Below are positions 3,260 through 45,753 of a DNA stretch of 64,000 nucleotides, piece by piece. The position numbers and the translations under genes were made by a program. Position 1 is the stretch's first letter. Each line of letters opens with the position of its first letter. Origin of the DNA: Rhynchopus sp. YZ270_cl-10 (taxonomy: Eukaryota); the NCBI GenBank assembly GCA_964035575.1, contig OZ037846.1:1550001-1614000 (forward strand). The letters are read 5' to 3'. The notes below the pieces were generated by a model. It was given only the letters and a program-made list of their open reading frames with translations. It made no database searches and had not been told where the DNA came from.

Positions 3260-4343
3260 TACCCCCATACCCCCCCTTTTTTTCGTGATAAGGTCGTCTA
3301 TAGCGCTGTTGTTGTTGTTGTTGTTTTTACAAAATAACTTGCCCAGAAAAGGGTTTTGCTATTTACGACGTTCTCCTTTGAAAGCTGTAACCAAGTACTC
3401 TTGGGCTGACTTTTCACCTATAAACTTTTTCTCCCTTGTTTTATTTTGTGATTGTGTGTACCCTCTATCCCTAGCCCTTATGGTGGGGAAGGGGGGCTAT
3501 TTTTGGTGTTTTTTTTTTTTTTTTTTTGCTAATCCGCCTTTTTAAAAAAAAAAACAAAAAGAAAAGAAAAGAAAACCGCGAGAATTTCAAATAAAACAGC
3601 AACAACAACAAAATTAGTACTTTTTTGAGTACCTTTTTTTCATGATGATTTGCCCCCTTTTTTGATACTTTTTCAAGAAGAAATAAGGAAAATAATTATG
3701 CCAACGTTGTTGGATTACATTGAAAGGAGTCCGTGGGTAATTTATCCAAAGGAACTGATCCGTTATCAGAAAGCATCTTTACGACAATAAAACAAGGGGG
3801 TGCTCTCAACTGATACTATAACCACACAATACAAGAATTCTCGTCCCCTCTTTTTTTACTTTTATTATTTTTTCAAAAAAAGCAAAAAAAGAATACAACT
3901 GTTTTTTGTTTGTAATGTGCGAAATTGACGCCACTTCCTCTAAAACTAGAGCACTACAGCGCACTGATCACTCCTTCTTAACTTTGTCTGGGTGGAACAA
4001 ATGTACTAGGTAAACACGAATCGGGCACTACTTCATGAACTTCAGTGAGTTGAGTTGAGTTTAGAACACTGGACTGGCCTTCGATGGTCATATGACGACG
4101 CATACTGGGAATGATCCTCACCGGGGGGGGATTGCGTCGAGAACCACGTCAAACCGAAAATTTCAAAAACAAAAGTTTTTAATTATTTTCTAGCGACAAC
4201 TTCCATGCAGCACCAACTATTTTCCCCTCTTATCTTGAAGTCAGATTTCTATTTCCCTCCACTTCCACCCCAACTTCCAAAAACGCACATCCCCCACAAG
4301 ACTCCAGAGGCTCTTCCCCCTCTCTCTTACCCTTCTCTTCACA

Positions 4344-5273
4344 ATGCTTCGTACCGCCACTTCTGTTCTTAAGGTGTTTGGTCTTGAGGAAATGCTGACT
4401 GGCGTGCCTACAGGCACACCGATGGAGGATCTTGTCGCGCTTGGAGCGTCTCGGCAGGTTGTTGGGGGGCTTAACTTTCATCAGACGAGTTTGCAGGAGG
4501 CGCTTACTGCGGCGAGGGCGGACTGCAAATTTGTTTGTGTACTGCTTTTGAGCCCGCAGCACGAAGAAATGCGTGCCTACATCACAAACCTTTTCAGCGA
4601 CGAGGTCTGTGACATCCTGCGCCGAGAGTACATTCTCTGGGTCGGCAACGTGCACACCCCTGAGGGCTGCGACCTCTCCCGCCGTCTGCGTGCCGCCACC
4701 TTCCCTTATCTTGCTGTGCTCTACAGCCATACCTCCACCAAGATGATTTGCCTCAAATCTTTGGAAGGCTCTCACCGTCCTCAGGTCATTGACGCTACGT
4801 TGAGGCATTGTCAAGACACTGCGGGGAACCTTTTGGTGACGCAGCGCGCTGATAGGATGGAGGCGACTTCGAGGAGACGTTTGCAGGAAGAGCAGGACGC
4901 GGCGCTGCAGGCTGCAGAGGAGGAGGACAGACGGAGGGCGGAGGAGGAGAGAGTGGTGCGGGAGAGGGTGCAGGCGGAGGCTAGCAGGTTGGAGAGGGAG
5001 CGGGTTGAGGCAGAGCGGGCCTTGAAGCTGAAGGAGGAGGAATTGGCAGCGATCAGGGTGCGCGAGGCGGAACGTCTCGGGGAAGAGCCGTCGGAAGGCA
5101 GTGACGGTGGTGTAGGCCTCGCAAAGCTCCGTGTGACCATGCTGGATGGGTCGTGTGTGGAACGGCGCTTCCTCAGAAGCGATAAAATAGCGAAGGTAGC
5201 GGCGCTAGTCTACACACACCCGTCGTTTACGAATGACAAAGGGTTTGCGATTTGCACGACGTTCCCGGCCAAG
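4344..5273 (+). CDS. UAS + coiled-coil + UBX domain protein (FAF2/UBXD8-like p97 adaptor), exon 1; last exon uncertain (candidate 5536-5613)
   Basis: UAS-like region (SLQEALTAARADCKFVCVLL...FPYLAVL), E/R-rich coiled coil, UBX (LRVTMLDGSCVERRF...TTFP). Donor AAG|GTATGC at 5274; pyrimidine tract + TAG acceptor ending 5535. Confidence 0.85.
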
Positions 5274-5314
5274 GTATGCGTGTTGTGTGTTTGAGAACTA
5301 ATAGGGGGGGTCAT

Positions 5315-5649: not shown

Positions 5650-6490
5650 TGCGTAAAAAAAAAAAAAAAACAAGTAATTGCTATCGGAAAAAAACCCGGG
5701 TGTGCTGTGGAACTCCACTCTGAAAAAAATATAATCTACAACACGCCAGCATTCTGCTCTTCTGCAGGTATGCTAAAACGCTCTTCGTACGCTGGACCCA
5801 CTGGGATGGCTGTATCTGAAACTTTTAAACAGTGGGGCTGTCCTCTTCGTCCAGCACCATCTGCTCGATCGCGTTATTGGACGTAGTCTCGGCAGGCTCG
5901 ATAACCATTCGCTCGGGCGGCCTCGGCATGTTCCAGCTCGTAGTCGTCCACAGGCTCCCACGCATCGTCGTCGTCATCAGAGCAGTGCGGAAGGAACACA
6001 TAATGCACAGACGACAACGCGTCGTCGATCGCACCAGGCATCGTCAGCACCTCCAGAAAATCGCCAGGATGCTATGGTGGTTTCGAAAATCGCGCGGAGT
6101 TATCCACAGCACACCCCATTTTTTTTCTTAGCAATTAGTTGTTCTTGTTATTATTGTTTTCCACACACCTTCCTTCAACCCTTGTAGGATCAGTTCGTAT
6201 TTTTTTCGCGAAAACATGAAATTACACATTTCAAGAGAACAAAAAATTAAAAAGGGTCCCGTCAATGGGACGCCGTAAACCATAAGTCCTCAGTGTCAGC
6301 CGCATCATTTCAATGAAACCAAAAAGTGGCTTATTTGCATTTTTGGGCTCCGCCCGTGCAGCGGTGGGGTCATTTCGGAAAATTGGACAATTTTTTGACC
6401 ACTTAAATTTTGAGAAATATGAGCCCGGTTCCTTATACGTGGGGCCCATTTTTGGCCAAAATTTTTCTCAAAATCGACGAAATTAAAATT
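5650..6490. repeat. Dispersed repeat; further copies at ~13610-14330 (same strand) and ~22030-22740 (inverted)
   Basis: Near-identical blocks such as caagtaattgctatcggaaaaaa and cagcattctgctcttctgcaggtatgc in all three places; no intact shared ORF. Confidence 0.8.
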
Positions 6491-9134: not shown

Positions 9135-9729
9135 TTGTACAATAGTGTAGGGGGTCTCCTGGTCAGTATATTAGCTGTCCGAAAAATTAGTAAATAAATA
9201 AAAAATGCTCTATGTGCTCAGAAACGGCACAGGGGTCCCCCAGAAAACATTTTCTGCACAATTCGTCACAACCCGCACTGGATTAGTGCCTTTTTTTGGG
9301 CCTAAAATTCAAAAATTCAAAAATGGCTTTGTACAAGGGCGTTTTTTGCGTGTTTTTTCATGATTTTTCAAAGTCGCCAAAAATCATGTAAAATACGGCT
9401 TCCCACCCAACATTCTCCCCACAGCGTCGTTCTGGCACCCATATGCCCCAAAAAAACAGGTTTTTTTATATTTTTTTCCACACCCAATGCATCATAAAAA
9501 ATACACATTTCCACCAAACTCTACTAACCCACCGCACCCACAAGAAAGTTTCTTAACTATGTGTACCTAAGTGTTCAGATCGACGCGTTTTTAAAAAAAA
9601 GTAAAACAAAATCATAAAAAATGGGGTAAAACGCCACCTGGGGTCACAAGGCCCAGGCTCCTACCTTTACAGGTAGGGGAGCTGTTGAGTGACCCATCGG
9701 AAAATGGGTCAATGTCTATTCAAGAAATC

Positions 9730-10716
9730 TTTTGAGCCGTACTGTATTGTGCCAATTGGTCGCCAGCTAAAATGTCACTAATTTTACATCTGTAACCTGT
9801 CTTATGGGTGCATGCTGCGTGCGCTGGCTGCAATTGTGATATTTTGAGTCGAATAAAATTGTACTAATTGGTCGCCAGCTAAAATGTCACTATTCGAACC
9901 AGTTCTGTCTTCTGTAACGTGTCTTATTGCGTGCGCTGGCTGCAATTGCGATATTTTGAGTCGAATTGTATTGTACTAATTGGTCGCCAGCTAAAATGTC
10001 ACTATTCGAACTAGTTCTCACATCTGTAAGCTGTCTTATGGATGCATGCTGCGTGCGCTGGCTCCAATTGAGATATTTTGAGAAGAATTGTATTGTACTA
10101 ATTGGTCGCCAGCTAAAATGTCACTAATCGAACTAGTTCTCACATCTGTAACCTGTCTTATGGGTGCATGCTGCGTGCGCTGGCTGCAATTGCGATATTT
10201 TGAGTCAGATTGTATTGTACTAATTGGTCGCCAGCTAAAATGTCACTATTCGAACTAGTTCTGTCTTCTGTTACCTGTCTTATGGGTGTATGCTGCGTGC
10301 GCTGGCTGCACTTGCGATATTTTGAGTCAGATTGTATTGTACTAATTGGTCGCCAGCTAAAATGTCACTATTTGAAGCAGTTCTGTCTTCTGTTACCTGT
10401 CTTATGGGTGTATGCTGCGTGCGCTGGCTGCAATTGAGATATTTTGAGTCGAATTGTATTGTACTAATTGGTCGCCAGCTAAAATGTCACTATTCGAACC
10501 AGTTCTGTCTTCTGTAACCTGTCTTATGGGTGCATGCTGCGTGCGCTGGCTACAATTGAGATATTTTGAGCCGAATTGTATGGTACTAATTGGTCGCCAG
10601 CTAAAATGTCACTATTCGAACCAGTTCTCACATCTGTAACCTGTCTTATGGGTGCATGCTGCGTGCGCTGGCTGCAATTGCGATATTTTGATCCGAATTG
10701 TATTGTGCTAATTGGT
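9730..10716. repeat. Tandem array A, 122-bp unit, ~8 units (first two 112 bp)
   Basis: AATTGGT at 9754, 9866, 9978, 10100, 10222, 10344, 10466, 10588, 10710. Confidence 0.95.
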
Positions 10717-10718
10717 TA

Positions 10719-11273
10719 TGAAGGGACGTGTCTTATTCTTGCGGTATATTTTGGATGATATCGGCTACGCTGCGGTGCTCGCAACAGCTGGGGGTGGTGG
10801 TGGAGATGTGATGCAGGTGCTGACATTGAGGTAAAGAACAAGGACGCTGAGTGTTGAGAAGGTGTCGGTCAGAGCAGGTGCGGAAGTGTGTGTCACAGAC
10901 AACAATCGAAACACATGTCTTATCCTTGCGGCACATCACACCGAGACTGTACGCACTCTTCTGTGCCTGCCTGAGGTGGATTGTGTGAATCAGTCAAATA
11001 CGAGCGGCTTCACTCCACTGCATGGCGCAGTGTCACAGAAACACCCAGATGTGTCGAAGTTGCTCATTGATGCAGGGGCAGACATCGAAGCCGTTAATTA
11101 CATAGGCAGGACACCTCTTCACTGTGCTTGTGAGGTTGGGGCACTCGAAATTGTGGAGATGTTGGTGAAAGCAGGTGCGGACGAGAGTGTGGTGGACAAC
11201 AAGAGTCACACATCTCTCAACATTGCGGCATATCGTGGGCATACCGAGACTGTGCGCTATCTTGTGGGCTTGC
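10719..11273 (+). pseudogene. Ankyrin-repeat gene fragment, paralogous to 1-780
   Basis: GFTPLHGAV, LIDAGADIEA, GRTPLHCAC, GHTETVRYLVGL; stops/deletions at the 5' side; 3' end truncated by the transposon end at 11274. Confidence 0.8.
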
Positions 11274-11360
11274 TAGGGGGTCTCCTGGTCAGTATATTAG
11301 CTGTCCGAAAAATTAGTAAATAAATATAAAATGCTCTATGTGCTCAGAAACGGCATAACT

Positions 11361-12210
11361 TGACATGTGTTTATGGAATTGGTCCCGTACCAAGGTGTCT
11401 TGTTCGGTGTGATTTGTGCTGAAATGGATAGATGCTGAGGGTAAATGCTGCAAGCGCTAGGTATTCCGTGGCACATAATAATTTGATATGTGTTTGTGGA
11501 ATTGGTCCCGTACCAAAGTGTCTTGTTGGGTGTGATTTGTGCTGAAATGGATAGATTCTGAGGGTAAATGCTGCAAGCGCTAGGTATTCCGTGACGCAAA
11601 TAAATTGACATGTGTTTGTGGAATTGGTCCCGTACCAAAGTGTCTTGTTGGGTGTGATTTGTGCTGAAATGGATAGATTCTGAGGGTAAATGCACATGTG
11701 TTTGTGGAATTGGTCCCGTACCAAGGTGTCTTGTTGGGTGTGATTTGTGCTGAAATGGATAGATTCTGAGGGTAAATGCTGCAAGCGCTAGGTATTCCGT
11801 GACGCAAATACATTGACATGTGTTTGTGGAATTGGTCCCGTACCAAGGTGTCTTGTTGGGTGTGATTTGTGCTGAAATGGATAGATTCTGAGGGTAAATG
11901 CTGCAAGCGCTAGGTATTCCGTGACGCAAATACATTGACATGTGTTTGTGGAATTGGTCCCGTACCAAGGTGTCTTGTTGGGTGTGATTTGTGCTGAAAT
12001 GGATAGATTCTGAGGGTAAATGCTGCAAGCGCTAGGTATTCCGTGACGCAAATACATTGACATGTGTTTGTGGAATTGGTCCCGTACCAAGGTGTCTTGT
12101 TGGGTGTGATTTGTGCTGAAATGGATAGATTCTGAGGGTAAATGCTGCAAGCGCTAGGTATTCCGTGACGCAAATAAATTGACATGTGTTTGTGGAATTG
12201 GTCCCGTACC
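11361..12210. repeat. Tandem array B, 122-bp unit, ~7 units (one 86-bp deleted unit)
   Basis: AATTGGTC at 11377, 11500, 11622, 11708, 11830, 11952, 12074, 12196. Confidence 0.95.
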
Positions 12211-12231
12211 ACAACCGCAACCGCAATAATT

Positions 12232-13470
12232 AGGGAAGACGGCTGGCAAGCGGAAGAGAGATGAGAGTGATGCAGAGAGTGATGCAAAGAAGCAGAAGAA
12301 GTCCACTGCAAAGAATGCTGCTGCGAACAGCCAGGGGAAAGAGGAGTCTGCGAGTGGGGTGAAGCGCAGCAGTGATGACGGCGCCGATGCCGAGTGGCCC
12401 GGACTCGATATCGCTATGGCTGTGAGCAAGCAGGAGTCCGCAGGCCCGGCGGCAGGGACGACACGTGCCAGTGGGTTGCCACATGGAATACAGGATACGG
12501 GGTTTCTGCACCAGGAAGAACTTCTGGTGCACAACATGTAGAGGGTTCTCCCCATTGCGCTGGACGATGTGGAAGATTCGACCTATGGATTCTCCTCTTT
12601 GCACATGGTGGGATACGAAACCTCCTTAGCAGTGTCGCCGCCAGGATTCCAGGCCAATGATGTGACGTCGCTCACCTCGCGCCCTATCGCAACTCGGGGA
12701 GACGGAGCATGTGCGTTGCATGCGTTGCTGGGGAGGCATTTGTTGCATGGCGAGATTGTGTGCCGAGGTCTGCCAGATGTGACGGAGTCACAGCTCAGGG
12801 ACAGGCCTTGGCATCATGCCAGGGTATATGCGTTGAGAGAGCTCGTCAAGCATAGTGGCTTGTTCTTGAGGTGTGCCCGACAGTTTTGCGGCTTGACTCC
12901 AAGCTCGATAAGCACTGTGCGGACGCGAAGGCCGAGTTGACCAGACTCGAGTCGCTACGAGGTGCTCTCATTTTTGAGCACGTCAAGGCTAGGGATTTGT
13001 GTGCTGAAGATTCGCAGTTCTTACTGGAAATGAGGACGCTGCATGAACTTCATCGCGAGATGAGTCACGCGGACTTCATGCCACACGTGAATCCGGATTT
13101 GTGCAATGAGGGTTACAAGACGTGTGACCACATTCGTGAACGTGTGCGCGACGTTGCTGTTGCTGATCTCTTCCCGCAGGATGAGGCTGTTCAGCGTCAG
13201 ACAGATGTGATCACGCGCAAGCAGGAGGAGTTCTATTCCTCAAGAGGCGTACAGGAAGAAGTTCGTCAGTCGGGACTATTACCTGTCTGTGAAGAAATCG
13301 AGGCAGTGGCAGTGGCGTTCGGCAAAAGGGTGCTATTGGTCCACGAGGACACCAATACTTGTGTTGTGATGAATCCGGAAGCGACCCATGTTCGCGTCAT
13401 CCTGCAACAAGGGGATACAGCAGCACCTGAGAAGTGCCATTTCTCCCTGCTGAAACAAAACTCGCGCACG
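12232..13470 (+). pseudogene. Disrupted ORF with NLS-like N-terminus and OTU-like cysteine protease motifs
   Basis: KRKRDESDAESDAKKQKK; in-frame TAG at 12539-12541; TRGDGACALHALL (Cys box); frameshift near 12880; EEIEAVAVAFGKRVLLV...VILQQG...CHFSLL (His box). Confidence 0.6.
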
Positions 13471-15330
13471 CCACCAAATTTCCAGTGTCCGCAGTGTCGC
13501 ACCACTTATTTTTTTCGCATTTTGAGGGGGGGGAAATGCAAAATGAAAACAAAATTTTGGTAGATTCACAGAATTCAGATTTTTGCTAAGGTGCTGGCAG
13601 CTGGCCCCAAAAAAAAAAAACAAGTAATTGCTATCGGAAAAAAAACGGGGTGTGATGTGGAACTCCATCCTGTAGAAATAATCTACAACACGCCCAGCAT
13701 TCTGCTCTTCTGCAGGTATGCTAACGCTCTTCGTACGCTGACAGACCCACTGGGACGCCAGCATCTGAAACGTTCAAGAAGGGGGGCTGTCCTCTTCATC
13801 CAGCACCATCTGCTCGATAGCGTTGTTGGACGTCGGCTCGGCAGGCTCGGCGTGTTCCAGCTCGTAGTTGTCCACAGGCTCCCCACATTGTCGTCGTCGT
13901 TGGAGCAGTGCGGAAGGAACACAGAATGCACAGACTACAACACATCGATCACACCAGGCGCATCAGCACCTCCAGCAAATCGCCAGGATGCTACGGTGGC
14001 TTCGAAAATCGCGCGGAGTTTTCCACAGCACACCCCGCTTTTTTCTTAGCAATTAGTTGTTCTTGTTGTTACTGTTATTTTCAACCACCTTCCTTCAACC
14101 CTTGTAGGGATCAGTTGTTATTTTTTTCGCGAAAACATGAAATTATACATTTCAAGAGAACAAATTAAAAAGGGTCCTTATTTGCATTTTTGGGCTCCGC
14201 CCGTGCAGTGGTGGGGTCAATCTCGAAAATTGGACAATTTTTTGACCACTTAAATTTTGAGAAATATGAGCCCGGTTGCTTATACGTGGGGCCCATTTTC
14301 GGCTAAAATTTTCCTCAAAATCTGGTTTTGTAAAATTGACCCTTTACTCCCCCCCCACATCGATTTCAATACTATACCTTACTTCACCTACGGTTGCCCT
14401 TACAGGGGGGTGAAGGAAGGTAAGTTGAAAATATTTTCCCCCCACATTTTTTGGTCCAGGGTCACAAAAAAAAATCTCCGATTCCTGAAACCCCAAATCC
14501 TGGCGGAAACCCTGCCGGGGGGGGGAAAAACAAAAAAAAAAAATTTTGTTTTTTTTGACAAAAACGGCCAAAAACGACAAAATAGTTTTTACGACAAAAA
14601 TTCCTTCACAAATTGTACAGGATGAGACCCCCTAAGTGCCGAACTCCGCAGTTGGATAACCGAGGAATTCTCACTTTCCGCCGGAGGCCCCCAACTTGAG
14701 CTGGGTTGGGGACCCGGGCTCGACGAGTTTCAGCGAAAAACCCCAAAACCTATATAATTCCCTGTGGAGGGGGGAAAATTTTTTTTGGGCTGACCGAGTC
14801 AAACCGATTCTGACCGAGCCAGCCCCTCGTGGGCGGAATGCTGTATAGAACCCTGGTTAGTGTTGTTTTTTCTCTTACATAGTGCTCTTGTAGCCTTTAG
14901 TGGATTGAGTGCTGGATGCTTGCTAACATCTCTTGTGGCTTTCTTACGATTTTTTCTGCTACGCTCGTCGTAGCGCTTTCTTGTGACGCTTCTCGGTTCC
15001 CTCTCTGGAACATGTATACATGTTTCTGTTTGCTCTGTCAGTACACAGCCTAGCGGCGTGTCTGCTCTTACGTATCTCTTGTTTCTTTGTCATAAAGCAG
15101 AAAAATATGCAAAATGCAGCAAACTTTAAAAAACCCCTGCACCTGTGTTGTCATGGTTTCCCTTGTTTCGAGTGCGAAACGTTTCTCCATGTATTGCACG
15201 GGAAACAACATGACAAACAGGTGCAGGGTGGTTCCGTGCTTACCATAGAACCTGGCACCTTGTGTGTCTCCCAAAAACCAAAAAAGCGTTGTGTGTGAAG
15301 TTTTGAAGGAAGGAAAAATAAAATCTGCTG

Positions 15331-21207: not shown

Positions 21208-21885
21208 ACTGTGTACTGTGTACTGTGTACTGTGTACTGTGTACTGTGTACTGTGTACTGTGTACTGTGTACTGTGTACTGTGTACTGTGTACTGTGTAC
21301 TGTGTACTGTGTACTGTGTACTGTGTACTGTGTACTGTGTACTGTGTACTGTGTACTGTGTACTGTGTACTGTGTACTGTGTACTGTGTACTGTGTACTG
21401 TGTACTGTGTACTGTGTACTGTGTACTGTGTACTGTGTACTGTGTACTGTGTACTGTGTACTGTGTACTGTGTACTGTGTACTGTGTACTGTGTACTGTG
21501 TACTGTGTACTGTGTACTGTGTACTGTGTACTGTGTACTGTGTACTGTGTACTGTGTACTGTGTACTGTGTACTGTGTACTGTGTACTGTGTACTGTGTA
21601 CTGTGTACTGTGTACTGTGTACTGTGTACTGTGTACTGTGTACTGTGTACTGTGTACTGTGTACTGTGTACTGTGTACTGTGTACTGTGTACTGTGTACT
21701 GTGTACTGTGTACTGTGTACTGTGTACTGTGTACTGTGTACTGTGTACTGTGTACTGTGTACTGTGTACTGTGTACTGTGTACTGTGTACTGTGTACTGT
21801 GTACTGTGTACTGTGTACTGTGTACTGTGTACTGTGTACTGTGTACTGTGTACTGTGTACTGTGTACTGTGTACTGTGTACTGTG
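21208..21885. repeat. Perfect (ACTGTGT)n microsatellite, ~97 copies
   Basis: Direct reading. Confidence 0.98.
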
Positions 21886-23853
21886 AGTCACCTAAAGGGG
21901 TTCTGCTCAACGAAAGTGGCCGATTTTTCAACTTACCTTCCTTCACCCCCCTGTAAGGGTAACCGTAGGTGAAGTAAGGTATAGTATTGAAATCGATGTG
22001 GGGGGGGGAAAGGGTCAATTTTACAAAACCAGATTTTGAGGAAAATTTTAGCTGAAAATGGGCCCCACGTATAAGGAACCGGGCTCATATTTCTCAAAAT
22101 TTAAGTGGTCAAAAAATTGTCCAATTTTCGAGATTGACCCCACCACTGCACGGGCGGAGCCCAAAAATGCAAATAAGGACCCTTTTTAATTTGTTCTCTT
22201 GAAATGTATAATTTCATGTTTTCGCGAAAAAAATTACAACTGATCCCTACAAGGGTTGAAGGAAGGTGGTTGAAAACAACAGTAACAACAAGGACAAGTA
22301 ATTGCTAAGGAAAAACGGGTGTGCTGTGGAAAACTCCGCGCGATTTTCGAAACCACCGTAGCATCCTGGCGATTTGCTGGAGGTGCTGATGCGCCTGGTG
22401 TGATCGATGTGTTGTAGTCTGTGCATTCTGTGTTCCTTCCACACTGCTCCAACGACGACGACAATGTGGGGAGCCTGTGGACAAAAACGAGCTGGAACAC
22501 GCCGAGCCTGCCGAGCCGACGTCCAACAACGCTGTCGAGCAGATGGTGCTGGACGAAGAGGACAGCCCCCCCCCTTCTTGAACGTTTCAGATGCTGGCGT
22601 CAGTGGGTCTGGCAGCTTACGAAGAGCGTTAGCATACCTGCAGAAGAGCAGAATGCTGGGCGTGTTGTAGATTATTTCTACAGGATGGAGTTCCACATCA
22701 CACCCCGTTTTTTTTCCGATAGCAATTACTTGTTTTTTATTTCATCCAGACCCAGCCCGGAAATCTCGAAAAGCGCGGTTTCTGGGTGTTTTACTGGGCC
22801 AAACCCTCACAGAAGCCAAAAAACCCTGTTTTTGCCCGATTTCGCCCGGATTTCACCGGGGTTGGGGACACCCCAAATAATCCAAAGAAAACCTCAGAAA
22901 TAGATGTTCGCGAAATTTCGCAAGTCAAACTTCAGCCACAATACGCATTTTGTGCATACCCTGTGACTGTAGTGGCTAGAGAACACGCACATGCAGACTC
23001 GTTCCTTGCAATTTCCAGTGTTGTGTTTATCAATGCATGCATCCAGAGGACCTCTGGTTTACGAAATCGTGGGCACTCCTGTGCAAAAATGAAGTCGGGT
23101 TTTGACCCAAAATCGGGGTGGGTGGGCCATAATTTGCTCCAAATTTGGCCGAAAATTGGGATTTTTCTGAAAATTTCATTGTGCTCAACAAAAATCCTTG
23201 CTTTTTTGAAGAATTTTCCAAAAAATATGCTATACTCCCTATGACTGGACCCAACTCCCCTCACTATTTTTTCCCCGAAAGAAGCCCCCCAAATTTTTAC
23301 CTTTTTTTAGCGTTTTTATTTAAAATCACTATTTTAGGGTACCTCCAAAAAAGCAGGCCTTTTGCTAACTTTGGGATTTTCCCCAGGAATGGCATGATGG
23401 TCAAAAAAAAATAATTTCCTGGAAAAAAAGTACATTCCGAGCTTTCCCACCTGGTAAAAGCGGTCGTCGCGCGCTTCGCGCGCGCCTCCCTGACAGCCAC
23501 AGGATGGAGAGGCGAAGGGTCAGCTTTGCAAGATAACAAAAAAAAACGGAATCTAATCCTTTATTAACGGTGCTTGGTCTTGCGCCTTACGTACACTGAC
23601 CGTACAAAATCACTACGTCTTCCAGAAGCAGGGGCTGTTGCAACGGTTGGGTCACTTTGAAATAACAATGGTAAAATTTTTGCAGCTTGGGTCAAGTTTC
23701 ATTTCTGGCTGCAAAATGCAAGGGAATCCCCTTAGACATTGTAAAATGGCACCGTAGGCAGGAAGAAAATAGCGTACAGCGCGAGCGAAGCGAGCGGGAA
23801 TTTTTTTTTTTTAGGTATACCTCCGCGAGCGCAGCGAGCAGAAAAATTTTAAG

Positions 23854-23965
23854 ATGCCATCATGCCATCATGCCATCATGCCATCATGCCATCATGCCAT
23901 CATGCCATCATGCCATCATGCCATCATGCCATCATGCCATCATGCCATCATGCCATCATGCCATC
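23854..23965. repeat. (ATGCCATC)n microsatellite, ~14 copies
   Basis: Direct reading. Confidence 0.97.
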
Positions 23966-24870: not shown

Positions 24871-25626
24871 TGTACGCGACCGGTATACTATTACCTGGAT
24901 AACGTTCAGGGCCGATTGGCACACTGTTTGTAACCTGTATGATACAAGGCTACGCCTATTGTACCACTACTGGTAGCAGGCAGTTACAGTACACAGTCGC
25001 TGCAAAATGGTGCCTTGAGTGTGGCGGAACGCCCTCACTCTTTATTATTCGACTCAGCAGCCTTGATCGCGAGTTGTCACGAAACTGTGAGGGAAGCTAT
25101 CGGTTTGTCGAATTGAATTGGAGCAGGGGATGCGTCCAATGAAAATCACGTCGTCGGGTGAGGTGTGCTTGTTAATGACTTCTCGAGGCCACGTTAAAGA
25201 GGTTGCGTGGCTTGCCAAGCTCCGTTCTTTCACGGCACGCATCACTCATTTGTCCCAATCTGTGCCTGAGCTCTACCGAGCTGCGTTTAGCACATTGCAC
25301 TACTTTTTATGTAATGGAAGGAGCTTCGCAACCTGGCTCTCATGAGCAGCAAGGATTGTGCAGGTCTTTGCGGGGTTGGCTTTTACAAGCCTTCCCTCTC
25401 CATCAGGTTCTTAATCTTAATGTTGATGTGTAGTCATGAGTAGTCTTGATCTCTCACGCAAGGTGTTTATCTTTTTTATGCTTTTTCGTCACCCCTTTCT
25501 CTTCATGCTCTGTGTCACGTTGGCTGCACCCCATACAAGACGCGACGGTGCATGCGGTCCATCTTAATGCATACCAGACACGTGTTCTGACACCTCCACC
25601 CACCCCCATTTCCACAGGATCTTACA

Positions 25627-27762
25627 ATGTACACAATGCGCTGTCTGGAGGGTGTGCTGTCGTTGGACGGGACACTGGACGCTCGTGCACGTCGGAAGCA
25701 GACGTTGTTCTTCGTGATGTGCTTTGTGGCACTGTGTTCGGCATCGTTGGCGGGTTTCAGGACTGTGGTGAGTCCTCAGGGACGGTACGTTTACGTTGCA
25801 TCCTACGTTCTTGGTGTTGCTGTACTACTTGCCGGTGTCGTGCTGGTCCTGTGCAGAGTCAAGCTGAACACACGCATTATCGTCTCTTGTTGCTACCTGT
25901 TGGCTCTCGCAGTCGTCGGGATCGACATCGCCGTGCGTGCCACAGAGAGAGTTGCATGGCCACTGCTCGTGCTCATCGTTGACGTGCTCCTTGTGATGGA
26001 GGTGCCCGCACACTACAGCATGGGTGTCGTCTGCTTCACACTCGTGTACTTCTTTGTCATGTGTCTCGAAGAGGTGTTCAGGTTTGGCATCCTCGACCTG
26101 CCAGGTATCGCGCCGCAGGTGTTCAGACGTGAGTACATGGCCAACAGAATCAACTGCACTGACTATCCGTGCCCTAATATTGAAGCAGTTTCCAGCCAGA
26201 TGGTTGCCGGGATGGTGTTCGTGGTGGACTTCATCGCAACGCGAGGCTTTGCACGAGCTGTCCTGAAGGAGCAGGAGTCAATGGAGCGGACGATCAACGT
26301 TGTGCAAGAGATTGCGTCGTTGCTTGCTGGCTACGACGTGGAGCAGGTGGCGGAGCTGTTGAAGGTGCATGAGGGTGACCTGCCTGAGGGGATGACAGAG
26401 GCACTGCGTAACTTGGAGGAGAACCTGCGGAAGTACCGTCCCTACCTCCCTGCTGCGCTGTTTGAGGCTGAGGTGGATGAAGACGGTGTGCAGCAGCCGA
26501 CTGTGGCACCGCCTGGGCTTGACAGCGAGACAGCAACAATTGTGTTCACAGACATCCGTGCGTCGACGTCGATCTGGGAGAATGCACCTGAGGGGATGCG
26601 TGCTGGACTGCAGATCCACAACGCTGTGATGCGTGAGGTGATGCGGATGTGTGGTGGGTACGAGGTGAAGACCATTGGCGACGCATTCATGATTGCCTTT
26701 GCATCCACTTGCGACGGTGTGGCGTTTGGGTTGCGTGTGCAGGAGCGTCTGTTTGAAGCAGACTGGCCTGCGTCTCTGCTTGAGGATGCACCAATCTGCT
26801 GTCGGCAGGGGTCGCTGTGGGGTGGTCTGACTGTGCGCATTGGTGTGAACACTGGCCCTGTGACTGTGGAGCAGAACACACTGACGGGACGGACAGACTA
26901 TCTTGGACACACAGTGAACGTTGCATCACGCCTTGAGAGCACATGCACACCTGGTGCTGTGGCTTTGCCCTCTGACCTGTGGACATCTGTCTCTGGGTCG
27001 TGCAGTGCTGTTGCAGGTGTGCCAGAAGCAGTTCACTTGAAGGGTGTGTCTGGGAGCACGTTGGTGTGCTGTGTGTGGCCTGTCTCACTTGGGGGACGAA
27101 GGGAGACACCACTTTGCGAGTTTTCTCCGCCCCCTAAGCGAATGTCCAGTGCGAAGCTGGACAAGAGTCAAAATTTGTTTCAAACGTTGAGGAGCAGATG
27201 TCCATCGTTAGCTTCGGAGGGGTCTTCACACTCACGATTGGCGTACTCGACCCGCCAGGTCTCGGGCACTGTGGGAGTTGCACAGCTTGCAGTGGGCGAC
27301 GTGACGGACAGCACAGCATTCCCACACATGAGCTCCGGACTCACAACACTGACGATCACACTGGAGCAGAGTGGAGGGAGTCTGGTGACGCTGCTTGGGA
27401 ACTGTGTGTGTGTTGGGTGGAACGTGTCGCGTTCTGCACCTGCACACATGGAGAACGCGATACGGTTTGTGCAGCGCATGTCTGTGAAGTCTGCACTGAA
27501 CGGGGCTGGTCTTGCAAGCGGTCCTGTGCAGCACGGGGATGTTGGTGCACGGAGCCAGCGCTTTGTGACTGTGATGGGGGATGTTGTGCGTCGGAGTTGG
27601 GCGCTGTGCGAGGAGGCTGTGCGTGACGGGGTTGTGTGTCTGTACGAGCCTCCTGAAGGGACAACACTGCCGTCTGCACTTGAAGACGTTCTTGTCCAGC
27701 ACAAGGGGTCTGGCTACAGAGTCGTTGAGTCAGACAACAAAGAACGAGACAGAGTATTTTAG
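25627..27762 (+). CDS. Multi-TM class III adenylate cyclase (711 aa) with a degenerate second cyclase-like domain, copy 1
   Basis: About 6 hydrophobic N-terminal segments; IVFTDIRAST, GYEVKTIGDAFM, VRIGVNTG, DYLGHTVNVASRLES; C-terminal SGPVQHGDVG...VMGDVV lacking catalytic residues. Start may be Met at 25636. Confidence 0.92.
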   Translation: MYTMRCLEGVLSLDGTLDARARRKQTLFFVMCFVALCSASLAGFRTVVSPQGRYVYVASYVLGVAVLLAGVVLVLCRVKLNTRIIVSCCYLLALAVVGIDIAVRATERVAWPLLVLIVDVLLVMEVPAHYSMGVVCFTLVYFFVMCLEEVFRFGILDLPGIAPQVFRREYMANRINCTDYPCPNIEAVSSQMVAGMVFVVDFIATRGFARAVLKEQESMERTINVVQEIASLLAGYDVEQVAELLKVHEGDLPEGMTEALRNLEENLRKYRPYLPAALFEAEVDEDGVQQPTVAPPGLDSETATIVFTDIRASTSIWENAPEGMRAGLQIHNAVMREVMRMCGGYEVKTIGDAFMIAFASTCDGVAFGLRVQERLFEADWPASLLEDAPICCRQGSLWGGLTVRIGVNTGPVTVEQNTLTGRTDYLGHTVNVASRLESTCTPGAVALPSDLWTSVSGSCSAVAGVPEAVHLKGVSGSTLVCCVWPVSLGGRRETPLCEFSPPPKRMSSAKLDKSQNLFQTLRSRCPSLASEGSSHSRLAYSTRQVSGTVGVAQLAVGDVTDSTAFPHMSSGLTTLTITLEQSGGSLVTLLGNCVCVGWNVSRSAPAHMENAIRFVQRMSVKSALNGAGLASGPVQHGDVGARSQRFVTVMGDVVRRSWALCEEAVRDGVVCLYEPPEGTTLPSALEDVLVQHKGSGYRVVESDNKERDRVF

Positions 27763-29494: not shown

Positions 29495-30689
29495 GTCCGA
29501 CTCAGCCGTTTTTGGCTGGGACCCAACGTACAAAAAACTCATTTTTAAACTTCTGGCCATCTCCAAGGCAATTGCGGGTGAAAAACACCCTCAGAGTGGG
29601 TCACAGGGGGCCTGTGGGTCGAAAAACGACCCAGAAGCCACCCCAGAATACAAAAAAATGGAAAAAAATAGTGAAAAAACGGCTTTTTTCAGGTTTTGGC
29701 CATGTTGGGCAAAACAGCGATTTTTCAAGAAAAAAACCAAAAAACGGCATATTTTTTGACATCACAAAGCCTCCTTTGGCACAAATATACCCCAAAAGTG
29801 GCCTGTGAGTCCATTCCAACCTGTTTTGGACATATTTGACACTTTTGGAAGTGTTTTTTTGGTGTTTTCACGCTGAAAAACACCCCCAAAAAATCCTTGG
29901 ACGGTCCTTGGACAGCACTGCCACCATTGCTCCGACCACATTCTCGGCCATATTTTTGCTTAAAACCCCCGAAAAAGGGCCCCCGGAACCCCAATCTTTC
30001 CAAATTTCCACCTCATCCCCACCCAAACACCGCAAACACACGATAGAAAATCGTCTTAAAAAACACACTTTTTTCAAAAAGGGTATTATGGAACCCGCCT
30101 GATGACCTTTTTGAAAAAAGTGTGTTTTTTAAGACGATTTTCTATCGTGTGTTTGCGGTGTTTGGGTGGGGATGAGGTGGAAATTTGGAAAGATTGGGGT
30201 TCCGGGGGCCCTTTTTCGGGGGTTTTAAGCAAAAATATGGCCGAGAATGTGGTCGGAGCAATGGTGGCAGTGCTGTCCAAGGACCGTCCAAGGATTTTTT
30301 GGGGGTGTTTTTCAGCGTGAAAACACCAAAAAAACACTTCCAAAAGTGTCAAATATGTCCAAAACAGGTTGGAATGGACTCACAGGCCACTTTTGGGGTA
30401 TATTTGTGCCAAAGGAGGCTTTGTGATGTCAAAAAATATGCCGTTTTTTGGTTTTTTTCTTGAAAAATCGCTGTTTTGCCCAACATGGCCAAAACCTGAA
30501 AAAAGCCGTTTTTTCACTATTTTTTTCCATTTTTTTGTATTCTGGGGTGGCTTCTGGGTCGTTTTTCGGCCCACAGGCCCCCTGTGACCCACTCTGAGGG
30601 TGTTTTTCACCCGCAGTTGCCTTGGAGATGACCAGAAGTTTAATAATGAGTTTTTTGTACGGTCATTTACTAGGGAGTCGGACCCCCTA
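29495..30689. mobile_element. Palindromic foldback element 1 (arms ~29527-30082 and ~30106-30661; left terminus degraded)
   Basis: ~555-bp near-perfect inverted arms, ~20-nt spacer; right terminus AGTCGGACCCCCTA at 30676-30689. Confidence 0.85.
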
Positions 30690-31934: not shown

Positions 31935-33134
31935 TAGGGGGTCCGACTGTGAGTAAAATTACCGTACAAAAAACTCATTATTAAACTTCTGGTCATTTCC
32001 AAGGCAACTGCGGGTGAAAAACACCCTCAGAGTGGGTCACAGGGGGCCTGTGGGCCGAAAAACGACCCAGAAGTCACCCCAGAATACAAAAAAATGGAAA
32101 AAAATAGTGAAAAAACGGCTTTTTTCACGTTTTGGCCATATTGGGCAAAATAGCGATTTTTCAAGAAAAACCCAAAAAAGCGGTTATTTTTTGACATCAC
32201 AAAGCCTCCTTTGGCACAAATATACCCCAAAAGTGGCCCGTGAGTCCATTCCAACCTGTTTTGGACATATTTGACACTTTTGGAAGTGTTTTTTTGGTGT
32301 TTTTACGTCAAAAAAAATACCCTGGCAATACCCTGACCGCGCTCCGGCAGCATTCCAGCATGCTGTTTGACCCATATAGGGGTCAAGAAATGGCCAAAAA
32401 CCCCTGAAAAAGGACCCTGGGAGCCCAGATAGTTCCAAATTTCCACCACATCCCCACCCAAACACCGCAAAAACACGACAGAAAATCGTCTTAAAAAACA
32501 CACTTTTTTCAAAAAGGTCATTATGGAGCCTGTCTGACGACCTTTTTGAAAAAAGTGTGTTTTTTAAGACGATTTTCTGTCGTGTTTTTGCGGTGTTTGG
32601 GTGGGGATGTGGTGGAAATTTGGAACTATCTGGGCTCCCAGGGTCCTTTTTCAGGGGTTTTTGGCCATTTCTTGACCCCTATATGGGTCAAACAGCATGC
32701 TGGAATGCTGCCGGAGCGCGGTCAGGGTATTGCCAGGGTATTTTTTTTGACGTAAAAACACCAAAAAAACACTTCCAAAAGTGTCAAATATGTCCAAAAC
32801 AGGTTGGAATGGACTCACGGGCCACTTTTGGGGTATATTTGTGCCAAAGGAGGCTTTGTGATGTCAAAAAATAACCGTTTTTTTGGGTTTTTCTTGAAAA
32901 ATCGCTATTTTGCCCAATATGGCCAAAACCTGAAAAAAGCCGTTTTTTCACTATTTTTTTCCATTTTTTTGTATTCTGGGGTGACTTCTGGGTCGTTTTT
33001 CGGCCCACAGGCCCCCTGTGACCCACTCTGAGGGTGTTTTTCACCCGCAGTTGCCTTGGAAATGACCAGAAGTTTAATAATGAGTTTTTTGTACGAAATT
33101 TTATACACAAGTCTATTAGGAGTCGGACCCCCTA
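31935..33134. mobile_element. Palindromic foldback element 2, complete
   Basis: TAGGGGGTCCGACT ... AGTCGGACCCCCTA; arms 31963-32519 and 32539-33095; 19-nt spacer; flanks G10C and G11C. Confidence 0.9.
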
Positions 33135-35303: not shown

Positions 35304-36695
35304 CATGGCTGTGTAACTTAAGTTAAATAAAAAACTTAAGTTTTCTCCGAAATCCTCCGGAAAATTTAGGCGACTTAAGCTACTAAAAAAAAAAACTTAA
35401 ATTAAAAAACTTAGGTTTTCGAAAAAAAAACTTAAGTTTTTTTAGAAAAAAAACGTAACTTAAGTTTTTATTTTTAAAAAACAGCTTAAGTTACCAACTT
35501 AAGTCACTTAAGTTAACTTAAGTTACCGTTTTTTTTTTTTTTTTTTGCTTGGGCGATGAACATCACTGAAGGGGGCGGATGCCTGGTGAAGCTTTTAAAC
35601 GCCGGCATTTGCATTTCCGGAATCCGTCCGGCCAGTGGTGGGGTCAATTTGCCGAAATGGACAAGTTCTTGTTTTTGGTAAATTTCCGCACAGTACACAG
35701 TACACAGTACACAGTACACAGTACACAGTACACAGTACACAGTACACAGTACACAGTACACAGTACACAGTACACAGTACACAGTACACAGTACACAGTA
35801 CACAGTACACAGTACACAGTACACAGTACACAGTACACAGTACACAGTATGTAATCTATGGTGGTCAAAGTGCAAAATTCCTTCGTCAATGCATTTTTTG
35901 AGTAACTGTTATACCTAGAGAATACGGTCACATCACTCTTCAGACCACCTGCAGCTTCACCACCAAGCATGTTCCCAGATCACGTGATTTTGACCAAAAT
36001 TTTGGGGTCCAGATCACGAAAAAAAAAAGGGGTATGGGGTGCGTTTTTGGGCGTTTTTGTCGATCGCATCGTCCGATTCGGTGCGATTGCAGAAAGTGAT
36101 GGGGTCATTTTGGAAAAATGGACAAAATTTTATTGACTTAAATTTTTGCAAAATATGAACCCATACTCGTAAACAAGGGTCATTTTCAGGTTTGAAAACC
36201 CAACTTCAGATGAAATTGTGGTGTTTTGAGTGGGAACACAGTAGCGCCGCAGGCGCACGGTACCCAACTTTTGTCTTTTTTCTTTTTCCCTTTTCTCTGC
36301 TTTCTTTTGATTGTGCGAGCCGATTGCTCTCCACGGTGGGGTCACATGTGTGTGCAAAAACACTCTGAAGTACCCTTACTATGAAATATGAGATTCTCTG
36401 GTTTTAGTAAGGAAAAACCCAAGCAAAATCGTCAAAAATCTACGGTAGTCGGTAGGCGCGTAGCGCGACCCCCGTGCGCACCCCACTTTTTTTTTTTTTG
36501 TTTTTCCCGGAAAAGTACCGCAATTGACGGATCGCGATCCGTGCGAACCGTGGTGGTGACTCATCTGAAAAAATATTGAGTAGAACAGCTGCAGATCGTG
36601 TGCGAGCACTTTTTTTTTTTTTTTTTTTTTTTTTTCCAAAATTCCTGAAAACCAGATCATGATCACGATCTGGGAAAAAGCTTGTTCACCACCCA

Positions 36696-36811: not shown

Positions 36812-37957
36812 GTAGTTGTCAAAAAAAAAAAAAAATTTTTTTTTTTTTTGAAAATTTTTTTTCGACAACTACTTTTCCAAGCCTGGAAAAAAAACCGATA
36901 TTGACCGGACTCGACCGGACTGGACCTATATTCGCCGGACCCCCCTTAGAATTTTGAAATTCCAAAATCCACCTTAGTTTTTACCCCTCCGGTGTTTGTT
37001 GTCTTACTGTAATATACGAAGAGATACGTGTGCGGTTGTATGGAAATAATACAAAGCGAAATAATTGGGCTCTTTCGGATTGAATGATTAGAAGAGTGTG
37101 AGTTCGGAAACAAATACTCACTCTCGCTATATTGTTCTCTTATTTATTGTTTCCCCCCCTGTTTGCGCATTGTTGCTGCTTTTTTGTTTACACAGTACAC
37201 ATATTTTTTATTGGTGTGCTATTACCTGGATAACGTTCAGGGCCGATTGGCGCACTGTTTGTAACCTGTATGATACAAGGCTACGCCTATTGTACCACTA
37301 CTGGTAGCAGGCAGTTACAGTACACAGTCGCTGCAAAATGGTGCCTTGAGTGTGGCGGAACGCCCTCACTCTTTGTTATTCGACTCAGCAGCCTTGATCG
37401 CGAGTTGTCACGAAACTGTGAGGGAAGCTATCGGTTTGTCGAATTGAATTGGAGCAGGGGATGCGTCCAATGAAAATCACGTCGTCGGGTGAGGTGTGCT
37501 TGTTAATGACTTCTCGAGGCCACGTTAAAGAGGTTGCGTGGCTTGCCAAGCTCCGTTCTTTCACGGCACGCATCACTCATTTGTCCCAATCTGTGCCTGA
37601 GCTCTACCGAGCTGCGTTTAGCACATTGCACTACTTTTTATGTAATGGAAGGAGCTTCGCAACCTGGCTCTCATGAGCAGCAAGGATTGTGCAGGTCTTT
37701 GCGGGGTTGGCTTTTACAAGCCTTCCCTCTCCATCAGGTTCTTAATCTTAATGTTGATGTGTAGTCATGAGTAGTCTTGATCTCTCACGCAAGGTGTTTA
37801 TCTTTTTTATGCTTTTTCGTCACCCCTTTCTCTTCATGCTCTGTGTCACGTTGGCTGCACCCCATACAAGACGCGACGGTGCATGCGGTCCATCTTAATG
37901 CATACCAGACACGTGTTCTGACACCTCCACCCACCCCCATTTCCACAGGATCTTACA

Positions 37958-40093
37958 ATGTACACAATGCGCTGTCTGGAGGGTGTGCTGTCGTTGGACG
38001 GGACACTGGACGCTCGTGCACGTCGGAAGCAGACGTTGTTCTTCGTGATGTGCTTTGTGGCACTGTGTTCGGCATCGTTGGCGGGTTTCAGGACTGTGGT
38101 GAGTCCTCAGGGACGGTACGTTTACGTTGCATCCTACGTTCTTGGTGTTGCTGTACTACTTGCCGGTGTCGTGCTGGTCCTGTGCAGAGTCAAGCTGAAC
38201 ACACGCATTATCGTCTCTTGTTGCTACCTGTTGGCTCTCGCAGTCGTCGGGATCGACATCGCCGTGCGTGCCACAGAGAGAGTTGCATGGCCACTGCTCG
38301 TGCTCATCGTTGACGTGCTCCTTGTGATGGAGGTGCCCGCACACTACAGCATGGGTGTCGTCTGCTTCACACTCGTGTACTTCTTTGTCATGTGTCTCGA
38401 AGAGGTGTTCAGGTTTGGCATCCTCGACCTGCCAGGTATCGCGCCGCAGGTGTTCAGACGTGAGTACATGGCCAACAGAATCAACTGCACTGACTATCCG
38501 TGCCCTAATATTGAAGCAGTTTCCAGCCAGATGGTTGCCGGGATGGTGTTCGTGGTGGACTTCATCGCAACGCGAGGCTTTGCACGAGCTGTCCTGAAGG
38601 AGCAGGAGTCAATGGAGCGGACGATCAACGTTGTGCAAGAGATTGCGTCGTTGCTTGCTGGCTACGACGTGGAGCAGGTGGCGGAGCTGTTGAAGGTGCA
38701 TGAGGGTGACCTGCCTGAGGGGATGACAGAGGCACTGCGTAACTTGGAGGAGAACCTGCGGAAGTACCGTCCCTACCTCCCTGCTGCGCTGTTTGAGGCT
38801 GAGGTGGATGAAGACGGTGTGCAGCAGCCGACTGTGGCACCGCCTGGGCTTGACAGCGAGACAGCAACAATTGTGTTCACAGACATCCGTGCGTCGACGT
38901 CGATCTGGGAGAATGCACCTGAGGGGATGCGTGCTGGACTGCAGATCCACAACGCTGTGATGCGTGAGGTGATGCGGATGTGTGGTGGGTACGAGGTGAA
39001 GACCATTGGCGACGCATTCATGATTGCCTTTGCATCCACTTGCGACGGTGTGGCGTTTGGGTTGCGTGTGCAGGAGCGTCTGTTTGAAGCAGACTGGCCT
39101 GCGTCTCTGCTTGAGGATGCACCAATCTGCTGTCGGCAGGGGTCGCTGTGGGGTGGTCTGACTGTGCGCATTGGTGTGAACACTGGCCCTGTGACTGTGG
39201 AGCAGAACACACTGACGGGACGGACAGACTATCTTGGACACACAGTGAACGTTGCATCACGCCTTGAGAGCACATGCACACCTGGTGCTGTGGCTTTGCC
39301 CTCTGACCTGTGGACATCTGTCTCTGGGTCGTGCAGTGCTGTTGCAGGTGTGCCAGAAGCAGTTCACTTGAAGGGTGTGTCTGGGAGCACGTTGGTGTGC
39401 TGTGTGTGGCCTGTCTCACTTGGGGGACGAAGGGAGACACCACTTTGCGAGTTTTCTCCGCCCCCTAAGCGAATGTCCAGTGCGAAGCTGGACAAGAGTC
39501 AAAATTTGTTTCAAACGTTGAGGAGCAGATGTCCATCGTTAGCTTCGGAGGGGTCTTCACACTCACGATTGGCGTACTCGACCCGCCAGGTCTCGGGCAC
39601 TGTGGGAGTTGCACAGCTTGCAGTGGGCGACGTGACGGACAGCACAGCATTCCCACACATGAGCTCCGGACTCACAACACTGACGATCACACTGGAGCAG
39701 AGTGGAGGGAGTCTGGTGACGCTGCTTGGGAACTGTGTGTGTGTTGGGTGGAACGTGTCGCGTTCTGCACCTGCACACATGGAGAACGCGATACGGTTTG
39801 TGCAGCGCATGTCTGTGAAGTCTGCACTGAACGGGGCTGGTCTTGCAAGCGGTCCTGTGCAGCACGGGGATGTTGGTGCACGGAGCCAGCGCTTTGTGAC
39901 TGTGATGGGGGATGTTGTGCGTCGGAGTTGGGCGCTGTGCGAGGAGGCTGTGCGTGACGGGGTTGTGTGTCTGTACGAGCCTCCTGAAGGGACAACACTG
40001 CCGTCTGCACTTGAAGACGTTCTTGTCCGGCACAAGGGGTCTGGCTACAGAGTCGTTGAGTCAGACAACAAAGAACGGGACAACGTGTTTTAG
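37958..40093 (+). CDS. Multi-TM adenylate cyclase, copy 2 (near-identical to 25627-27762)
   Basis: Part of duplicated block 24888-~27772 = 37219-~40103 (offset 12,331); visible protein differences only near the C-terminus (VQH/VRH, DRVF/DNVF). Confidence 0.92.
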   Translation: MYTMRCLEGVLSLDGTLDARARRKQTLFFVMCFVALCSASLAGFRTVVSPQGRYVYVASYVLGVAVLLAGVVLVLCRVKLNTRIIVSCCYLLALAVVGIDIAVRATERVAWPLLVLIVDVLLVMEVPAHYSMGVVCFTLVYFFVMCLEEVFRFGILDLPGIAPQVFRREYMANRINCTDYPCPNIEAVSSQMVAGMVFVVDFIATRGFARAVLKEQESMERTINVVQEIASLLAGYDVEQVAELLKVHEGDLPEGMTEALRNLEENLRKYRPYLPAALFEAEVDEDGVQQPTVAPPGLDSETATIVFTDIRASTSIWENAPEGMRAGLQIHNAVMREVMRMCGGYEVKTIGDAFMIAFASTCDGVAFGLRVQERLFEADWPASLLEDAPICCRQGSLWGGLTVRIGVNTGPVTVEQNTLTGRTDYLGHTVNVASRLESTCTPGAVALPSDLWTSVSGSCSAVAGVPEAVHLKGVSGSTLVCCVWPVSLGGRRETPLCEFSPPPKRMSSAKLDKSQNLFQTLRSRCPSLASEGSSHSRLAYSTRQVSGTVGVAQLAVGDVTDSTAFPHMSSGLTTLTITLEQSGGSLVTLLGNCVCVGWNVSRSAPAHMENAIRFVQRMSVKSALNGAGLASGPVQHGDVGARSQRFVTVMGDVVRRSWALCEEAVRDGVVCLYEPPEGTTLPSALEDVLVRHKGSGYRVVESDNKERDNVF

Positions 40094-45451: not shown

Positions 45452-45753
45452 AGCACATTTTTACGGTGCACGGGCGTAGGGGATTGGTATCTTTTTTTTC
45501 GAGAGGACCTAAGAGCGGCCAGGTCCTGGACAAGTACGTTGGGCTTTTAGACCTATAAACTGTCTGGGGTGGTGGGACCTCGGTGCGAAGGGTGCTTCCC
45601 GGGACTCCAATATCGTACCACAAATAAGGGGGAGTACACCACGTAGTAGGGTACTCCCACAAACAAAACTCCCCAGTCAACGCCGACGGAGCGAGACTCG
45701 ATTGTGACCGGGTGAAAAGGGAACCTTAAGCCAGAGCTATCCAGCGGCAGTTT
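45452..45753 (+). mobile_element. Truncated, internally deleted copy of the 41400 SINE just upstream of cyclase copy 3
   Basis: Matches ~41423-41650 and ~41814-41893 with substitutions. Confidence 0.8.

Follow-up and report, generated by a model that had tools for sequence, protein, structure and literature searches.

The stretch analysed here (the window) comprises 64,000 nucleotides of contig OZ037846.1 from Rhynchopus sp. YZ270_cl-10, in which a gene remnant stands behind the second of two arrays of 122-bp tandem units, within an arrangement that carries two left ends and a possible right end (Table 1). Both left ends begin with TAG after G or C, and they cut the start of an adenylate-cyclase-like gene and an ankyrin-repeat gene, respectively. 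The ankyrin fragment is 75% identical to positions 237-661 of the window and is cut at 11273, where the paralog continues. The terminal 11-mer occurs three times (at 9148, at 11274 and, inverted, at 14624), against 0.48 occurrences expected with one mismatch allowed. A contig filed under another organism label aligns from 9147 and has a different flank, and contigs of other copies contain the joint 9705->12057, in which left end 1 runs directly onto an array-B unit. Arrays A and B have the same period of 122 and both contain the octamer AATTGGTC, all 16 plus-strand occurrences of which in the window fall inside the two arrays; the alignment of an array A unit with an array B unit was not significant (29.5 versus 25.1 +/- 4.9).

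Table 1. Features of the array-bearing element and of the gene remnant, as positions in the window
Feature	Positions	Strand	Remarks
Left end 1, starts TAGGGGGTCTC	9148..9705	+	First 82 bp common to left end 2; interrupts the start of an adenylate-cyclase-like gene
Array A, 122-bp tandem units	9724..10716	+	
Ankyrin-repeat gene fragment, lying between left ends 1 and 2	10835..11273	+	Pfam Ank E 6e-25
Left end 2, 82 bp	11274..11355	+	98.8% identical to 9148-9229; array B directly after
Array B, 122-bp tandem units	11355..12211	+	One unit frame reads RVNAASAR
N-terminal part of the remnant, 5'-truncated	12230..12538	+	Basic clusters 12248-12301; UIM-like helix 12404-12436
Premature stop in a formerly continuous ORF	12539..12541	+	Homology on both sides
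Predicted OTU-fold domain with extended helical lobe	12590..13476	+	Cys box 12698-12727 (Cys codon 12710-12712), His box 13438-13452
Downstream segment common to further copies with other upstream sequence	13489..13608	+	Loose ends 13489 and 13547, depth rising
Very high-copy repeat, unrelated, between remnant and inverted end	13609..14431	.	Copies at 21925-22742 and 5659-6475; many flanks at 13609
Inverted 11-mer, possible right end	14624..14634	-	Sequence from 14635 is another repeat

The ends do not have the HLE1 form (TC ... hairpin-CTRR, A|T site), since a perfect GC-rich hairpin precedes none of the 21 CTRR sites in 13456-15300. HLE2 elements have inverted repeats of 12-16 nt, a stem-loop and a T|T site; the inverted repeat here is 11 nt long, its flanks are not T|T, the local ends lack a T|T site combined with a stem-loop beyond the inverted repeat, and the true right end may lie elsewhere. 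AGTG flanks both 9148 and 14634, but it was rejected as a proven target-site duplication because from 14635 on the sequence is that of another repeat, so that the two flanks come from different loci. A transposase linked to the element had been among the things to look for, and none tied to the TAGGGGGTCTC ends was found; by eye, no DDE transposase was recognised among the ORFs of the window.

The remnant had been described in the initial annotation as an OTU-like protease with a bipartite nuclear localization signal (NLS), and the motifs on which that description relied are all in place: KRKR (12248-12259), KKQKK (12287-12301) and GDGACALHAL (12698-12727) in one frame, and EIEAVAVAFGKRVLLV (13294-13341) and HFSLL (13438-13452) in a second. 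Of the one stop and one frameshift reported to split it, the stop stands, but comparison with its intact relative P0001 gives three frameshifts, near 12889, 13242 and 13292. The frame thus holds one stop and three frameshifts, with no start upstream: a stop at 12227-12229 precedes the basic cluster and the first in-frame ATG comes only at 12416, from which it follows that the remnant is 5'-truncated. The proposed nuclear location relied on a bipartite-NLS pattern that has 83 matches in the six frames of the window, which is the level expected by chance. The Cys-box pattern, on the other hand, has a single occurrence in the same six frames. UIM helices follow the consensus hydrophobic-x-x-A-hydrophobic-x-x-S-x-x-E, and the only match to it in the six frames of the window is the UIM-like helix of the remnant, which the initial annotation had missed; the pattern recurs at the aligned place in the paralog P0003, is absent from P0014 and has no Pfam UIM match. 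No OTU match for the window pieces or for P0001 was obtained with the Pfam OTU profile (PF02338) or in Pfam, PHROGs and PDB sequence searches.

Intact copies, which had been suggested as a check on the reading, do exist as the open frames P0001, P0003 and P0014. A protein search over 1.84 billion sequences returned nine matches, one of them spurious (P0006, with RTX repeats), which was dropped. P0001, found with the 3' piece, is an open frame of 474 aa that matches the two halves of the remnant from 12590 on at 94% and 84% identity; its N-terminus differs from that of the remnant and lacks the NLS/UIM part. Residues 2-9 of P0001 read RVNAASAR, the same as one frame of the array-B unit, and, judged by this identity, the predicted start of the open-frame variant derives from the array unit. 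P0003 is intact (45%) and carries both KRKR and the UIM-like helix. The N-terminal part of the remnant aligns to P0003 from 12386 and to P0014 and P0015 from 12284, and the P0003 alignment crosses the stop of the window (E 1e-20), which makes that stop a nonsense change within an ORF that was formerly continuous and that included the N-terminal part. P0014 (46%, a cluster of 6) is an intact ORF with basic clusters and a second, canonical-looking OTU at its end, which reached Pfam OTU E values of 0.05-0.15 in three of the six cluster members, below the cut-off. In the diverged paralogs, then, the OTU domain is preceded by basic and UIM-like motifs.

P0001 was modelled with AF2 from a 44-row alignment and reached a pLDDT >90, so the model describes this relative and not the broken copy of the window. 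Residues 201-470 were predicted with block pLDDT values of 84-98, whereas the single-sequence prediction reached a pLDDT of only 37 and was unusable. When the model was compared by VIA-align with 48,161 PDB representative chains, all 19 chains with Z>=8 were OTU deubiquitinases, the best being 6dx2_B (Z 11.4, rmsd 3.1, 139 aligned, model range 185-470), and the first non-OTU row (Z 7.2) covers the helical insert only. Foldseek matches to the PDB were individually weak (best E 0.026), and all 37 rows listed among ranks 1-50 were OTU or OTU-like proteases, where we take 3von to be OTUB1, 7bu0 to be LotC and TYMV PRO to be OTU-like. Against viral models Foldseek gave mostly long helical matches, with two OTU-labelled rows (E 0.005 and 0.01). 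Among the rows of the 44-row alignment that cover each column, the Cys is conserved in 43/43, the His in 41/41, a Glu in 41/41 and an Asp in 37/43. The D-G-x-C of the OTU Cys loop corresponds to GDGAC at 12698-12712 and leads a modelled helix (215-221), and the His-aromatic motif of the last beta strand falls on a modelled strand (462-468). The Pfam OTU profile is matched by 8 of 27 family members (best E 1.2e-4) and is the sole family matched by more than one of them. On the strength of this model, the intact relatives of the remnant are predicted to fold as OTU deubiquitinases, in line with the OTU identity first proposed. The long insert noted earlier between the Cys and His boxes corresponds in the model to an all-helical lobe of about 190 aa that follows the Cys loop and precedes the variable loop (C215 to about 405). 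This insertion measures 50-60 aa in usual OTUs and 178-210 in the Legionella LOT enzymes, according to the available part of PMC7690952.

The linkage of the OTU part to array B is seen in further copies. In each of the runs X1 and X2, a single contig extends from the last part of array B through the basic cluster and the stop into the beginning of the OTU domain (12182-12626; depth 497.5 in X1 and 550.1 in X2), and the array junction is common to copies in the contig data. Broken-type contigs have depths of about 500-630 versus 304-332 for the other type, the X1 values alone being about 500-580 and 306-332, and two other contigs in X1 have depths of 78.6 and 92.8, contig depth not being a true copy number. 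At the stop (12539-12541), a sense variant accounts for a depth of 110.7 of 450.2 in X4. Four cluster members (P0002 and P0011-13) have the same frameshifted reading, and one or two of them may be the window itself; matches in the paralog search are mostly fragments and frameshifted copies. Of the 17 changed codons among the listed differences between the broken and the other variant, 14 are non-synonymous. The window copy is a dead passenger, and its broken form is clearly repeated: being both multicopy and fixed behind array B, the broken version has spread as a passenger. An in-frame skip of 159 nt in the linker (12297-12457) was also observed in contigs of X3 and X4. A contig of at most 3405 nt and low depth (92.8 in X1; seen in X1, X2 and X3) matches the basic-cluster region alone (12251-12407), with 13 differences and 15 gap letters and with kilobases of other sequence alongside, and it is a candidate for a longer parent locus.

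The longest member of the P0014 cluster, P0015 (1171 aa), has extra sequence in front and points to the parent of the remnant. Its order is a helicase-like half, a shared domain, a basic linker, UIM-like helices, the OTU and a second OTU-like domain, and the segment behind the helicase is common to P0003 (E 5e-14). P0015 begins mid-helicase, and its front part contains Pif1-type motifs in order, corresponding to the C-terminal half of the helicase. An ordered five-block Pif1 profile scored P0015 at 83.3, compared with at most 47.4 for 400 shuffles and at most 45.7 for 81 natural decoys; the profile was built from ten helicases (one of eleven was dropped for lacking a motif), its blocks were picked after the motifs had been seen, and one block is off its expected place. 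Gapped alignments of P0015 to two Pfam-confirmed Pif1 proteins each beat 2000/2000 shuffles as well as the 81 natural decoys. Pfam, PHROGs and PDB sequence searches gave no match for the helicase half; a two-sequence HMM was not significant, and a ten-sequence HMM reached E 0.034 among 82 targets. In the accessible text of PMC8788227, a Pif1 helicase is given as a part of Helitron transposases, and Pif1-like ORFs present in many copies in eukaryotes are said often to be pieces of Helitrons; OTU and VTD domains are described in Helitrons in the available parts of PMC9741609 and PMC11417382. Helitron-, MULE- and TATE-like ORFs are mentioned for a genome of the diplonemids, which the host presumably resembles in gene content, in the accessible portion of PMC10161547, the supplement text of which gave 0 matches for Helitron, its long repeat section possibly not being covered. 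The helicase half followed by an OTU and a second OTU-like domain points to a Helitron-like polyprotein, an assignment that we infer, as no Rep (HUH) domain is seen in P0015, which starts mid-helicase. The mobile-element origin proposed in the initial annotation thus agrees with both the multicopy state and the helicase fusion, and the remnant likely derives from the tail of a helicase-encoding transposon instead of serving the neighbouring arrays.

Outside the host-type copies, the closest relatives of the OTU domain belong to a family in Chlamydiota with the invariant signature GDGxCxxHA...H[YF][SE]R. Relatives in Protochlamydia, Simkaniaceae and Chlamydiae MAGs (4/169 candidate stretches) and five loci in metagenomes (5/500) came from pattern scans based on a four-row alignment, and profile searches of Chlamydiota genomes found the family in 20/400 and then in 38/401. 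No relative was found in IMG/VR (0/160 candidate stretches), in PLSDB plasmids or, by single-protein patterns, in GTDB. A profile of three host paralogs, run on 40 targets, scored P0010, L001, L005, L018, L040 and L034 highest (41-59 bits) and gave -1 for the second OTU of P0014. With 8 long rows removed, the tree of the other 34 places the host copies together with eight chlamydial or metagenomic rows (99/97), and in a quick search with all 42 rows they again fall with the chlamydial/metagenomic group (SH-aLRT 95). Neither tree is rooted, and with a host branch as long as 1.7-3.0 they do not fix which way the transfer went; the greater chlamydial diversity makes it likely, as far as sequence comparison goes, that the OTU domain has a bacterial (chlamydial) source. 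Contamination by chlamydial DNA was rejected, as contigs bridge array B into the ORF and the relatives are only about 20-26% identical.

Chlamydial and metagenomic members are often C-terminal domains of proteins of 1000-1300 aa (L001, L005, P0010) or occur as tandem paralogs (L006, L007). Their front regions include a DUF6119-like part in P0010 and a non-specific endonuclease in L002. The OTU family was also found in two eukaryote-looking contigs (L008:1629-2726 and L009:1236-4022), with a longer lobe (Cys-His spacing 324); these two fall apart from the host copies in the tree, in an unsupported position, and possibly represent a second transfer.

Considering all of these data, the stretch is probably a dead, 5'-truncated gene-tail copy of a predicted OTU deubiquitinase of the chlamydia-type long-helical-lobe family, likely from the end of the Pif1-helicase polyprotein of a Helitron-like element, and it now travels behind array B as the passenger of a small non-autonomous family. 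The tail of the intact parent would work as a deubiquitinase built into the protein: entry into the nucleus would be aided by the basic linker, ubiquitin would be bound by the UIM-like helices together with the helical lobe, and Cys215 and His462 (P0001 numbering) would strip the transposase or its partners of ubiquitin and so keep them from proteasomal degradation. Protection of the transposase has been suggested for Helitron VTDs in the accessible part of PMC9741609. As to its history, the domain would have been acquired from an intracellular chlamydia, an internal deletion would have joined the tail to array B, and the frame would have decayed while copying of the element continued. We also entertain, tentatively and at somewhat less than even confidence, a fuller scenario in which a protist's rolling-circle transposon acquired a deubiquitinase of the chlamydial effector type from a symbiont living inside the cell and attached it to the end of its helicase, along with ubiquitin-binding helices and a second OTU; the donor would be a long-lobe OTU family, not described so far, that about a tenth of Chlamydiota species possess.

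The parent may have been of another kind, though we regard this as unlikely: a mobile element that encodes a helicase but is no Helitron (either cut-and-paste with TAG...CTA ends or integrated and virus-like), or else a separate TAG-ended carrier of the Pack type, which would have picked up the OTU tail just as it did the ankyrin piece. The flush 11-bp inverted-repeat ends without a Helitron hairpin would suit such a parent, as would an OTU lying downstream of the helicase, since in the available text on HELIANO (PMC11417382) Helitron OTUs sit upstream of RepHel. The ankyrin fragment between two left ends is what a Pack-type carrier might leave, and large DNA viruses likewise have Pif1-like helicases (PMC8788227, available part), one match here being to Mollyvirus. 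Against such a parent stand flanks from three loci (cyclase, ankyrin and another repeat) that contain no true target duplication, the failure to find a transposase, intact paralogs that match the window only at 12284-13491, and the empty IMG/VR scan.

That the deubiquitinase was the functional partner of the 122-bp arrays and a nuclear anti-silencing factor, as the initial annotation had supposed, now appears very improbable. Both variants are tied to array-B sequence, the basic clusters recur in P0003 and P0014, and deubiquitinases of transposons have been proposed to aid transposition (accessible part of PMC9741609). Copying of the element went on, however, past the loss of the enzyme, and this speaks against a function with the arrays: in the contig data the broken variant has the greater depth, the open-frame variant lacks the NLS/UIM part and takes its predicted start from an array unit, and codon changes between the two are mostly non-synonymous. 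No DNA-binding domain was seen in the remnant or among the structural matches, the fold being that of a protease with a helical lobe, and the NLS pattern occurs at chance-level frequency. Equally little credence goes to an ordinary host multigene family, whether received from chlamydiae or inherited, that was spread by segmental duplication and that the arrays merely adjoin. Recent segmental duplication is indeed seen in the window, many host families are expanded, and P0003 and P0014 are intact ORFs; set against this are the array junction common to copies, the prevalence of fragments and frameshifted copies among the matches and the fusion of the domain to a divergent helicase half.

The derivation from the helicase-borne tail of a Helitron-like element has close parallels, as transposon-borne deubiquitinases and long-lobe OTUs are each already known. 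The OTU and VTD domains of Helitrons and Helentrons are likewise deubiquitinase accessories in the ORF of a helicase-bearing transposon, with two such domains per ORF, and the VTD family likewise occurs in both Helitrons and Chlamydiales (PMC9741609 and PMC11417382, as far as their available text goes). Compared with the Helitron OTUs described there, the OTU studied here lies downstream of the helicase, has the lobe of about 190 aa, escapes the Pfam OTU profile, is closest to chlamydial sequences and is assigned without a Rep domain or Helitron ends. Satellite-bearing non-autonomous Helitrons of Paramecium (accessible part of PMC13085455) similarly have a left end, satellites of variable content and then an ORF or its remains; their right ends have a stem-loop and CCAA, and the elements lie in telomeric repeats, none of which is seen here, and the accessible text has 0 occurrences of OTU.

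Among bacterial enzymes, the Legionella LOT proteins (LotA/B/C; available parts of PMC7690952 and PMC7396840) likewise have a long helical lobe between Cys and His, a design that the accessible text describes as unique to the Legionella enzymes. There is no sequence-level match, structural comparison with LotB and LotC gives only Z 7.1-7.6 with rmsd 5.4-5.8, and the core of the P0001 model is nearer to nairovirus and OTUD-type OTUs than to the LOT enzymes. Judged from the model, the LOT enzymes and the present family would share a design, which does not imply kinship of the lobe. ChlaOTU and SnOTU are also OTU-fold proteins of chlamydiae (PMC7396840, PMC10643670 and PMC13720258, in the parts available); ChlaOTU has no recognisable His motif in these sources, unlike the family described here with its invariant signature, and SnOTU is otubain-like (Z 8.4, 128 aligned against the P0001 model). 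We found no paper naming the long-lobe chlamydial family or its presence in a eukaryotic helicase element, subscription papers and Repbase being outside the scope of the search, and neither is named in the accessible text of PMC7396840, PMC10643670, PMC13720258 and PMC13085455.

The dead copy of the window matters solely as a pointer to this family. The OTU of the element is tied to a bacterial family which, if the connection is true, would mean transfer of a ubiquitin-countering enzyme from a symbiont to a transposon; the analysis also uncovered a Pfam-invisible long-lobe OTU family in 38/401 chlamydial genomes. Transposon OTUs had not been assayed for activity according to the available part of PMC9741609, and since intact natural copies exist, activity is directly testable.

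The rest of the window holds several further genes and repeats. Four ORFs (25591-27762, 37922-40093, 45716-48040 and 59959-62166) presumably encode membrane adenylate-cyclase-like proteins, a name given from motifs, and the first two lie in a near-identical duplication with a spacing of 12,331 bp. We take the ORF at 1139-2470 to resemble ornithine aminotransferase and that at 4239-5294 to resemble a UBX/FAF-type protein. A ubiquitin-like gene piece (Pfam E 0.005) was found at 41064-41630 and a BspA-type LRR piece (E 4e-10) at 41993-42694. The very high-copy dispersed repeats at 13609-14431 and 14635-14856 each have several copies in the window. Perfect microsatellites of 7 and 8 bp, with up to 97 copies, occur at 21208-21885, 23854-23965, 35689-35849, 48873-49045 and 52876-53021. 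Two related long palindromes (29527-30661 and 31956-33102) have arms of 556 and 564 nt that are 99% complementary, with loops of 23 and 19 nt.
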